Of a DNA stretch of 16,424 bases, positions 5,866-6,206 are shown one piece after another (the stretch's first letter is position 1; each line of letters begins with the position of its first letter). This DNA is from a virus. Below the pieces are notes generated by a model. The model saw only the letters and a program-made list of their open reading frames with translations, did not search any database and was not told the origin of the DNA. The stretch lies in UHGV virus genome UHGV-0409449; one strand, written 5' to 3'. The position numbers were made by a program, and so were the translations under genes.

Positions 5866-5896
5866 AAAAAATCCCGCCGATTGGCGGGATTTCTTC
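5864..5896. terminator. Bidirectional rho-independent terminator between the ssb unit and the Dar operon
   Basis: 8-bp stem ATCCCGCC (5871-5878) / GGCGGGAT (5883-5890) with loop GATT. Flanked by A7 (5864-5870), which gives U7 on the minus-strand transcript, and by TTCTTC (5891-5896). Sits between the + stop at 5865 and the minus-strand stop at 5895-5897. Confidence 0.75.
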
Positions 5897-6206
5897 AATA
5901 TACGATCTGGTCTACATGATCACCAAAATCATCGTCGTCGTCGTCCTCATCGCCACCATCTACTACTGGCCAATCAACAAACCAGCCAGCGTAAAGATGC
6001 AGCGTTCGGAGAACATCACTTGCGGGAGCATCAAGGGTGTTAACGAATCCCATATAGCTATTGGGATTTGCCCCAGCTATGGCTTCAGCGATCATGTCCT
6101 CGGTAATGTCACCGGAGATAATGCTTAAACGCCCGGAAACTTCTTCATTATCATCAAATTCGATAATGGCATCTCCGCCTAATGGCGCTGCGATTTTAAT
6201 CTGCAT
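5895..6206 (-). CDS. Small highly acidic protein with poly-Asp tract; last gene of the Dar operon
   Basis: ATG at 6206-6204 with AAGGAG 8 nt upstream, overlapping the 3' end of the 995-aa gene by 11 nt. 103 aa with about 24 Asp/Glu against 3 Lys/Arg by my count, and a C-terminal DGGDEDDDDDDFGD run. Confidence 0.6.
   Translation of the reverse strand: MQIKIAAPLGGDAIIEFDDNEEVSGRLSIISGDITEDMIAEAIAGANPNSYMGFVNTLDAPASDVLRTLHLYAGWFVDWPVVDGGDEDDDDDDFGDHVDQIVY

Follow-up and report, generated by a model that had tools for sequence, protein, structure and literature searches.

What does a small, extremely acidic protein do which is encoded at the very end of an operon devoted to antirestriction? The question is raised by a 103-codon gene on the minus strand of the virus genome UHGV-0409449, whose DNA of 16,424 nucleotides is referred to below, at its full length, as the window. 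A previous interpretation of the letters alone (the sequence-only reading) had seen in the product of this gene a DNA mimic of the Ocr/ArdA class or a packaged internal protein and, at any rate, a plausible unrecognised component of the Dar system. P1 Dar is the classic example of antirestriction delivered by the virion and is taken to consist of six proteins; the product of the gene in question, Hxr, is not among the six named in recent structural and review papers (review PMC12707154). In the literature searched, functional data on hxr are confined to a CRISPRi essentiality screen; phenotypes of hxr mutants on restricting hosts were not encountered. In this screen hxr was non-essential and its knock-down caused no plating defect on the permissive host used, which renders the result neutral with respect to restriction.

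Identity of the gene and its position in the darA operon

The window is a segment of a P1-like phage-plasmid. Between bases 5700 and 6500 it shows 97.8% identity to Salmonella phage SJ46 and about 96% to P1. From prt to the C-segment it runs collinear with P1, bar a 680-bp insertion and the absence of the IS1/isaB of P1. The elements relevant to the position of the gene are the following:

5895-6206, minus strand: hxr coding sequence, 103 aa plus TGA stop, ortholog of P1 hxr (P1_gp021)
6196-9183, minus strand: ddrB, 995 aa, Pfam PF18763 (ddrB-ParB), E = 2e-39
6196-6206, minus strand: overlap of ddrB stop and hxr start, 11 nt in the sequence (11-17 nt in 9 of 9 intact homologous loci)
6214-6219, minus strand: Shine-Dalgarno sequence AAGGAG within the last ddrB codons, read from the sequence
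5864-5896, no strand assigned: intrinsic terminator hairpin, AUCCCGCC-AAUC-GGCGGGAU followed by U8 on the minus strand
9196-9561, minus strand: ddrA, whose product (pI 4.07, net charge -14) is nearly as acidic as Hxr
11479-12090, minus strand: hdf, whose product is very basic (pI 10.2, net charge +21)
12866-12884, minus strand: late promoter LPdar, exact match to the P1 element

The minus-strand ORF 5895-6206 encodes MQIKIAAPLGGDAIIEFDDNEEVSGRLSIISGDITEDMIAEAIAGANPNSYMGFVNTLDAPASDVLRTLHLYAGWFVDWPVVDGGDEDDDDDDFGDHVDQIVY. The sole family match of this protein is PHROG 2292, a family of unknown function, the profile of which is matched over the full length (E = 1e-59, residues 1-103 on profile positions 1-105). 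Since 2004 the P1 gene has carried the label “possible repressor; homolog of Xre”, which has been copied to other phage records and for which only the 2004 annotation note speaks, based on 28% identity to Xre across about 58 residues. An Xre-like transcriptional repressor, the current database annotation, is so improbable that we set it aside: no HTH family is matched at E ≤ 1, and the predicted fold is mixed beta/alpha, not the all-helical five-helix fold of an Xre/HTH_3 repressor. The feature is real and already annotated, and its functional label is wrong.

The 995-aa gene which the sequence-only reading had placed within the Dar operon does belong there and is ddrB, as evident from its Pfam ddrB-ParB match and the collinearity with P1; upstream of it lie ddrA, darA, hdf, lydB and lydA. 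The ATG of hxr (6204-6206) was likewise rightly described as embedded in the last ddrB codons, since it is situated 11 nt within the ORF 6196-9183, whose stop codon occupies 6196-6198, and the strong AAGGAG is present at the expected place, 7 nt 5' of this ATG. In the divergent loci examined the Shine-Dalgarno sequence reads AAGGAG or AAGGAA, and CAGGAG in a remnant copy (L003). The layout of the overlap indicates translational coupling of ddrB and hxr. A programmed frameshift giving rise to a DdrB-Hxr fusion was considered and rejected: the overlap contains no slippery heptamer while hxr possesses a good Shine-Dalgarno sequence and an ATG, and reinitiation coupling is therefore the simpler reading.

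The darA operon is closed by the terminator hairpin, which starts at the stop codon of hxr and for which an RNA fold of -21 kcal/mol (z = -4.7) was calculated; equivalent hairpins are present 3' of hxr in the homologous loci L004, L005 and L006. No sigma-70-like promoter site was found within 5600-6700, and the operon driven by LPdar comprises lydA-lydB-hdf-darA-ddrA-ddrB-hxr. Because of the terminator, the lack of a nearby promoter and the exact LPdar match, hxr has to be regarded as the final cistron of this late operon. The co-expression with the Dar head proteins put forward by the sequence-only reading is thereby borne out, as hxr is the terminal gene of this operon and its start is coupled to ddrB; it is, as one would demand of a Dar component, encoded and co-transcribed in the dar operon.

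Acidity, family and predicted structure of Hxr

The acidity of Hxr had been estimated at about 24 acidic versus 3 basic residues, and the count is exact (24 D/E versus 3 K/R in 103 aa). The computation of pI and charge suggested along with this estimate puts the pI at about 4.05 and the net charge at about -21, roughly half of which (-11 of -21) is held by the last 23 residues. The reported run of six Asp near the C-terminus is located at residues 88-93 (nt 5928-5945). At the level of the protein, three segments can be distinguished:

5961-6206, minus strand: predicted globular core, residues 1-82 (AlphaFold2 with a 24-sequence alignment; alignment)
5898-5960, minus strand: predicted disordered polyacidic C-terminal tail, residues 83-103 (pLDDT 33-51; tail charge in 24 sequences)
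5928-5945, minus strand: six Asp codons (four GAC, two GAT), residues 88-93, read from the sequence

The Asp run comprises five residues in P1, six in the window and eight in the homolog P0003 (P0002 was also compared), a variation among genes more than 94% identical as slippage would give. The run of Asp codons is too short for Tandem Repeats Finder, which returned no repeat there.

The family was collected by an exhaustive HMMER search and a subsequent profile search. Close relatives of hxr are present in 502 plasmid records and 20 phage records, while diverged members (30-46% identity, 95-100 aa) are found on P1-like contigs of 80-96 kb from Klebsiella, Enterobacter, Citrobacter, Cronobacter and Rosenbergiella. 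Neither search revealed homologs beyond P1-like elements of Enterobacterales. Four HMM matches of 500-950 aa (P0021, P0025, P0027 and P0028) turned out to be FG-GAP/VCBS-type repeat proteins which align only at ‘SGDITEDMIAEAIAG’ and were discarded as spurious. In informative hxr pairs, that is, those in which dS is unsaturated, dN/dS amounts to 0.07-0.2. Clearly, hxr is a real and conserved gene under purifying selection. The invariant core residues of the family alignment are G53, V65, L66, R67, W75, W79 and P80. In the P1 copy (L001 8999-9307) the otherwise near-invariant Asn56 is replaced by Asp.

The AlphaFold2 model, calculated with the 24-sequence alignment, shows a mean pLDDT of 75.6, with values of about 70-89 in the core and of 33-51 for residues 83-103; the predicted order of elements in the core is strand-strand-strand-helix-helix-strand. 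According to this model Hxr is composed of a globular core of about 80 aa and a disordered polyacidic tail of about 22 aa. In the 24 aligned members the tail carries a net charge of -7 to -14, the core only of -3 to -10 with few conserved acidic positions, and the composition of the tail, not its sequence, is conserved. Since the pI is 4.15 or lower and the tail acidic in 24 of 24 members, acidity is a conserved trait of the family and not due to chance. The tails usually end in Ile/Val-Val-Asn or, in more general terms, in a hydrophobic residue followed by Val/Ile and Asn (Tyr in the P1 group including the window).

Searching the model with Foldseek gave best E-values of 1.2 against the PDB and of 0.3 against BFVD, and no PDB sequence was matched, be it with the single sequence or with the profile. 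Pfam contains no family for Hxr at E ≤ 1, and NCBIfam as well as PADLOC remained empty. As far as these comparisons of the predicted model reach, the core has no detectable fold relative. A paralogous relationship to DdrA was considered and discarded (hhalign probability 0.2%). A natural tandem duplication is present in the homologous locus L008 (8205-8759), where a 184-aa Hxr-Hxr fusion is encoded whose first copy has a short acidic stub and whose second copy has the full poly-Asp tail; this arrangement hints at a dimeric working unit of Hxr.

Ocr (T7 gp0.3) and ArdA display their carboxylates in rigid folded arrays and are made early or in the recipient cell. With these proteins Hxr shares its small size, its strong acidity, its location on a mobile element and its tie to the evasion of type I restriction. 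It might accordingly be conceived as a DNA mimic which is packaged, injected and titrates type I R-M (or BREX) enzymes. The extreme acidity conserved family-wide, the position of hxr in an operon devoted to antirestriction and the hint at a dimer provided by the tandem fusion, as in Ocr and ArdA, all fit this possibility. In contrast to Ocr and ArdA, however, Hxr bears half or more of its charge in a disordered tail of non-conserved sequence, and it resembles no solved DNA mimic in sequence, profile or fold. The claim of an Ocr/ArdA-type protein thus found no backing from any family or fold comparison (Pfam, NCBIfam, PADLOC, PDB, Foldseek). The structure prediction which had been recommended to look for a DNA-mimic surface does reveal a folded core of about 80 aa, yet places much of the charge in a floppy tail and, apparently, not on a rigid surface.

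The time at which Hxr is made also speaks against a DNA mimic. Standing last in the LPdar operon and lacking a separate promoter, hxr is expressed late only; to act when DNA enters the cell, Hxr would therefore need to be packaged. A tryptic LC-MS/MS proteome of the P1 virion lists 27 proteins, including all six Dar proteins, and Hxr is missing from this list, so that the look-up suggested by the sequence-only reading came out negative. The detection of Hxr after tryptic digestion is expected to be poor, as only one of the peptides of P1 Hxr, with 2.3 kDa, is of usable size (the others have 0.5, 4.0 and 4.3 kDa); since the two-peptide cutoff of that study is hardly reachable for such a protein, its absence from the proteome is weak evidence. 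Still, a late gene whose product is not in the listed virion proteins, be it with one usable tryptic peptide, gives no sign of a protein that is in the cell when unmodified DNA enters. Moreover, there are P1-like lineages which keep the rest of Dar and are devoid of Hxr. Finally, in co-infections Dar protects only in cis: phages which are Dar+ do not rescue co-infecting Dar- phages, and protection is limited to DNA packaged together with Dar (review PMC12707154), which speaks against P1 virions carrying an effective inhibitor that works in trans. In view of these observations we consider a DNA mimic directed against host restriction enzymes unlikely.

The architecture of Hxr invites comparison with a different group of proteins. 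SSB and T7 gp2.5 consist of a folded domain, a flexible linker and an acidic tip which functions as a docking peptide. Hxr is similar to them in combining a folded domain with a disordered polyacidic tail and a conserved hydrophobic C-terminus. It differs in that its core is not recognised as an OB fold, that no DNA-binding domain is detected and that its terminal motif is I/V-V-N instead of DDDIPF or a terminal Phe. By analogy, this suggests that the Hxr tail may be a docking or an autoinhibitory peptide.

Association of Hxr with the peptidase-bearing form of DdrB

DdrB starts with an N-terminal ddrB-ParB domain, which is followed by a Gly/Ser-rich linker near residue 440, a variable middle part and a C-terminal zincin-like domain. 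The latter contains the following motif:

6556-6570, minus strand: HELGH (HExxH) zinc-peptidase motif of DdrB, residues 872-876, conserved in 9 of 9 full-length DdrB

In its extended form WHE[LIV]GHH[LIV]E[YF]S this motif is present near the C-terminus of each of the nine full-length DdrB proteins examined. A C-terminal metallopeptidase domain in DdrB was proposed by Iyer et al. (PMC5512222); the assignment of this part as a putative peptidase is based on the motif and on that proposal, with no Pfam match in this region. DdrB is also said to undergo proteolytic processing to about 76 kDa before packaging (PMC5512222). In every DdrB examined the HExxH motif is followed by a basic patch with a charge of +5 to +8 per 40 aa. 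A search for wider homologs of the C-terminal domain, meant to reveal comparable acidic genes behind them, returned only fragments from P1-like elements.

A short form of DdrB (461 aa; L009 6992-8377) matches residues 2-442 of the long form. It ends at the Gly/Ser-rich linker, which in the long form comprises residues 431-442 approximately (window 7857-7892), and DdrB is therefore made up of two separable modules. No other part of the operon varies nearly as much as residues 443-830 (window 6694-7857); between lineages whose N-terminal domains are 60-90% identical this middle part is only 15-30% identical, and it may constitute a determinant of host specificity. An ORF of 132 aa, antisense within ddrB (6961-7359, plus strand) and annotated as iddB in P1, is open in the window, too.

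The comparison of homologous elements comprises nine intact loci, namely the window (P1 and SJ46 show the same arrangement), L004, L005, L006, L008, L011, L012, L013 and L014. In all nine of them hxr directly follows, with an overlap of 11-17 nt, a ddrB gene encoding 929-1015 aa, although the identity of Hxr ranges from 30% to 98%. A Shine-Dalgarno sequence 5' and a terminator 3' of hxr are present in each of the four intact loci whose flanks were read. The genes downstream of hxr differ at each locus (ssb, MqsA/RelE, Arc, a porin gene, a CHAP-domain gene, ParE and others). In L012 the gene of a HicB-like antitoxin (985-1425) has entered between ddrA and ddrB in opposite orientation; this insertion splits the darA operon, and the ddrB-hxr pair stays together. 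Among the contexts examined hxr never occurs elsewhere than after ddrB except in L003, where a seemingly stand-alone hxr is preceded by the last 25 codons of ddrB and hence is a remnant.

The converse is observed where DdrB is short. The short form characterises a clade of P1-like plasmids from E. coli and Shigella (about 120 records in the 60-80% identity band, as taken from sampled rows), and locus checks revealed that these plasmids keep hdf, darA, ddrA and a darB-like gene while they are without the C-terminal half of DdrB and without Hxr. Scanning the whole 92.8-kb plasmid NZ_LR890273.1 gave a best E-value of 0.25 for the Hxr HMM and no match to the C-terminal half of DdrB. Likewise, neither this half nor Hxr is present in the 13-kb stretch examined of the Aeromonas plasmid pASP-135, which encodes a fusion of PBECR2 with the N-terminal part of DdrB. 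Among close plasmid relatives 483 records contain Hxr at an identity of at least 90%, compared to 485 records containing DdrB at an identity of at least 90%. Across the loci compared, Hxr is strictly associated with the peptidase-bearing form of DdrB.

The Dar genes of L008 are 97-100% identical to those of the window except for the part of DdrB behind HExxH (about 75-77%) and for Hxr (about 60-61%), meaning that the divergent block spans both, which likewise speaks for a link between the two. Mere adjacency of the two genes can, nevertheless, yield joint presence or absence and joint divergence. Sliding-window comparison shows that homology between related elements decays inside the 3' end of ddrB or inside hxr, and recombination boundaries lie there because hxr borders a hypervariable cargo region. 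L005 and L006 share a DdrB which is 99% identical while their Hxr proteins are only 82% identical, so that tight co-evolution is not evident. Correlating Hxr identities with those of the N-terminal part, the middle part and the peptidase domain of DdrB and with those of DdrA gave rho values of 0.61-0.70 throughout, without singling out the peptidase domain.

These data bear on the possibility that hxr is an independent accessory gene (anti-defence or other) at the end of a late operon, acting in the producing cell on a host target unrelated to DdrB. It borders a hypervariable island which holds a Tad2-like gene here and TA modules, a porin and other genes elsewhere; it is non-essential; and it diverges faster than its neighbours, with 82% versus 97-99% between L005 and L006 and with 61% versus 97-99% between the window and L008, though in the latter pair the peptidase domain of DdrB, too, is down at 75%. 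Unlike cargo, however, hxr is kept in every context with a full-length DdrB, always with an overlapping start, and is found nowhere else save the remnant behind the last 25 ddrB codons. An independent accessory function therefore appears rather improbable to us.

The same co-occurrence has to be considered with regard to Hdf. The net charge of Hdf (+21) is the exact opposite of that of Hxr (-21), and pairs of DarA and Hdf line the capsid and contact DNA (PMC12810830). One could thus imagine Hxr as a packaged internal polyanion which, independently of DdrB, serves as counter-charge or chaperone of the basic Hdf or as an ejection aid. Short-DdrB lineages, however, possess Hdf, DarA and DdrA and have no Hxr, and Hxr was not detected in virions by the published tryptic LC-MS/MS analysis. 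We judge such a role very unlikely.

The explanation we favour, tentatively and at somewhat less than even chance, is that Hxr is a dedicated partner of full-length DdrB and specifically of its C-terminal, HExxH-containing half. We infer this partnership from the conserved coupling and the co-occurrence of the two genes. The opposite charges of the basic patch of DdrB (+5 to +8) and of the Hxr tail (-7 to -14) are also counted in its favour, and the processing of DdrB before packaging provides a step at which a regulator of a peptidase would be useful. Hxr is probably a helper or an inhibitor of DdrB, be it a chaperone, an inhibitor or a loading factor. That Hxr binds DdrB physically, what its tail does and whether it enters the virion are matters of inference, too, and the general claim of a functional partner of full-length DdrB is held more confidently than the specific role of the tail.

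A partner of this kind could act as follows. Hxr would be made late in infection at a level which is tied to that of DdrB via termination-reinitiation coupling, and its core of about 80 aa would dock on the C-terminal module of DdrB. The flexible polyanionic tail with its terminal Ile/Val-Val-Asn might then occupy a basic or substrate-binding surface of DdrB and thereby hold this putative peptidase and DNA-binding protein in a soluble, inactive state up to its processing and its loading into the procapsid. In this respect Hxr would play a part for DdrB similar to the one which the small protein Ulx plays for DarB, the other large Dar protein.

As to its position and acidic tail, Ulx indeed offers the best functional analogy for the presumed relationship of Hxr to DdrB:

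L017 1496-1936, strand not given: P1 ulx, 146 aa, pI 5.3 overall

Like hxr, ulx is a small gene immediately 3' of a very large multidomain Dar gene (darB), and the C-terminus of its product is formed by an acidic stretch, EEVDDQDYEFESYDLEVE, with about 12 D/E in the last 32 residues. Ulx is a recognised Dar component listed as aiding the localisation of DarB. In contrast to hxr, whose start overlaps ddrB, ulx starts 33 nt from darB without any overlap, and Ulx is detected in virions whereas Hxr is not. Both giant Dar proteins, DarB and DdrB, accordingly have a small gene with an acidic-tailed product directly behind their own.

Further parallels exist to colicin immunity proteins, barstar and antitoxins, small acidic inhibitors whose genes lie right behind those of their cognate enzymes. 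With these Hxr shares a length of about 100 aa, its acidity and a start which overlaps the end of the gene of a potentially harmful enzyme, and it is co-inherited, as cognate inhibitors are, with a module of a putative ParB-like nuclease/NTPase and a zincin peptidase. It differs from the immunity and antitoxin families in showing no homology or fold match to them. DdrA of P1 (121 aa, pI 4.07), a packaged Dar component, is small, very acidic and encoded in the same operon as is Hxr; it is not homologous to Hxr, however, and is present in lineages without it.

A more far-reaching version of a partnership with DdrB makes Hxr the seventh, so far unrecognised Dar component: a regulator without fold relatives which would plug the zinc-peptidase/basic groove of DdrB with its polyanionic, DNA-like tail and its conserved C-terminus and thereby time the self-processing of DdrB and its loading into the procapsid, or free active DdrB only after injection. 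We regard this version as possible but doubtful. If it were true, a disordered ‘DNA-mimic tail’ would be directed against an effector of the phage itself instead of a host restriction enzyme. The view of the sequence-only reading that Hxr is an unrecognised component of Dar is a fair hypothesis insofar as Hxr is not among the six recognised proteins. As to conservation along with the other Dar genes the picture is mixed: Hxr accompanies full-length DdrB in all nine intact contexts and is missing from the short-DdrB lineages which keep other Dar genes.

New in the present analysis are the architecture of the Hxr family, as predicted, the lack of a detectable fold relative and the strict link to the peptidase-bearing form of DdrB. 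As hxr is mis-annotated, locked to this form of DdrB and missing where the peptidase-bearing half is absent, it gives rise to a concrete hypothesis for DdrB, the least understood arm of Dar. Phenotypes of ddrB deletions may include the loss of coupled hxr expression. The practical effect is modest, consisting in a correction of the annotation across about 500 plasmid and 20 phage records, and Hxr does not represent a categorically new kind of system; it should be of moderate interest to specialists in P1 and in antirestriction.

The region downstream of hxr

We would like to note a few observations made in the vicinity of hxr. The single hairpin at 5864-5896 terminates both hxr (minus strand) and the convergent isaA-like ORF 5077-5865 (plus strand). 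In P1, IS1 and isaB are located between hxr and the isaA-like gene instead. A 107-aa ORF with an ATG start (5805-6128, plus strand), which is antisense to hxr, begins within the end of the upstream gene and crosses the terminator, and the Asp/Glu-rich codons of the opposite strand have most likely produced it as a side effect.

A 281-aa ORF (4225-5070, plus strand) matches in its residues 197-280 the Pfam family Tad2-like (Thoeris anti-defence 2-like, DUF2829) with E = 2.5e-22 and, on account of this match, is a candidate anti-Thoeris gene beside the Dar operon. P1 lacks 680 bp at 4397-5080, from which it follows that its ‘IsaA’ is a fusion of the first 60 residues or so of the 281-aa ORF with the gene at 5077-5865.
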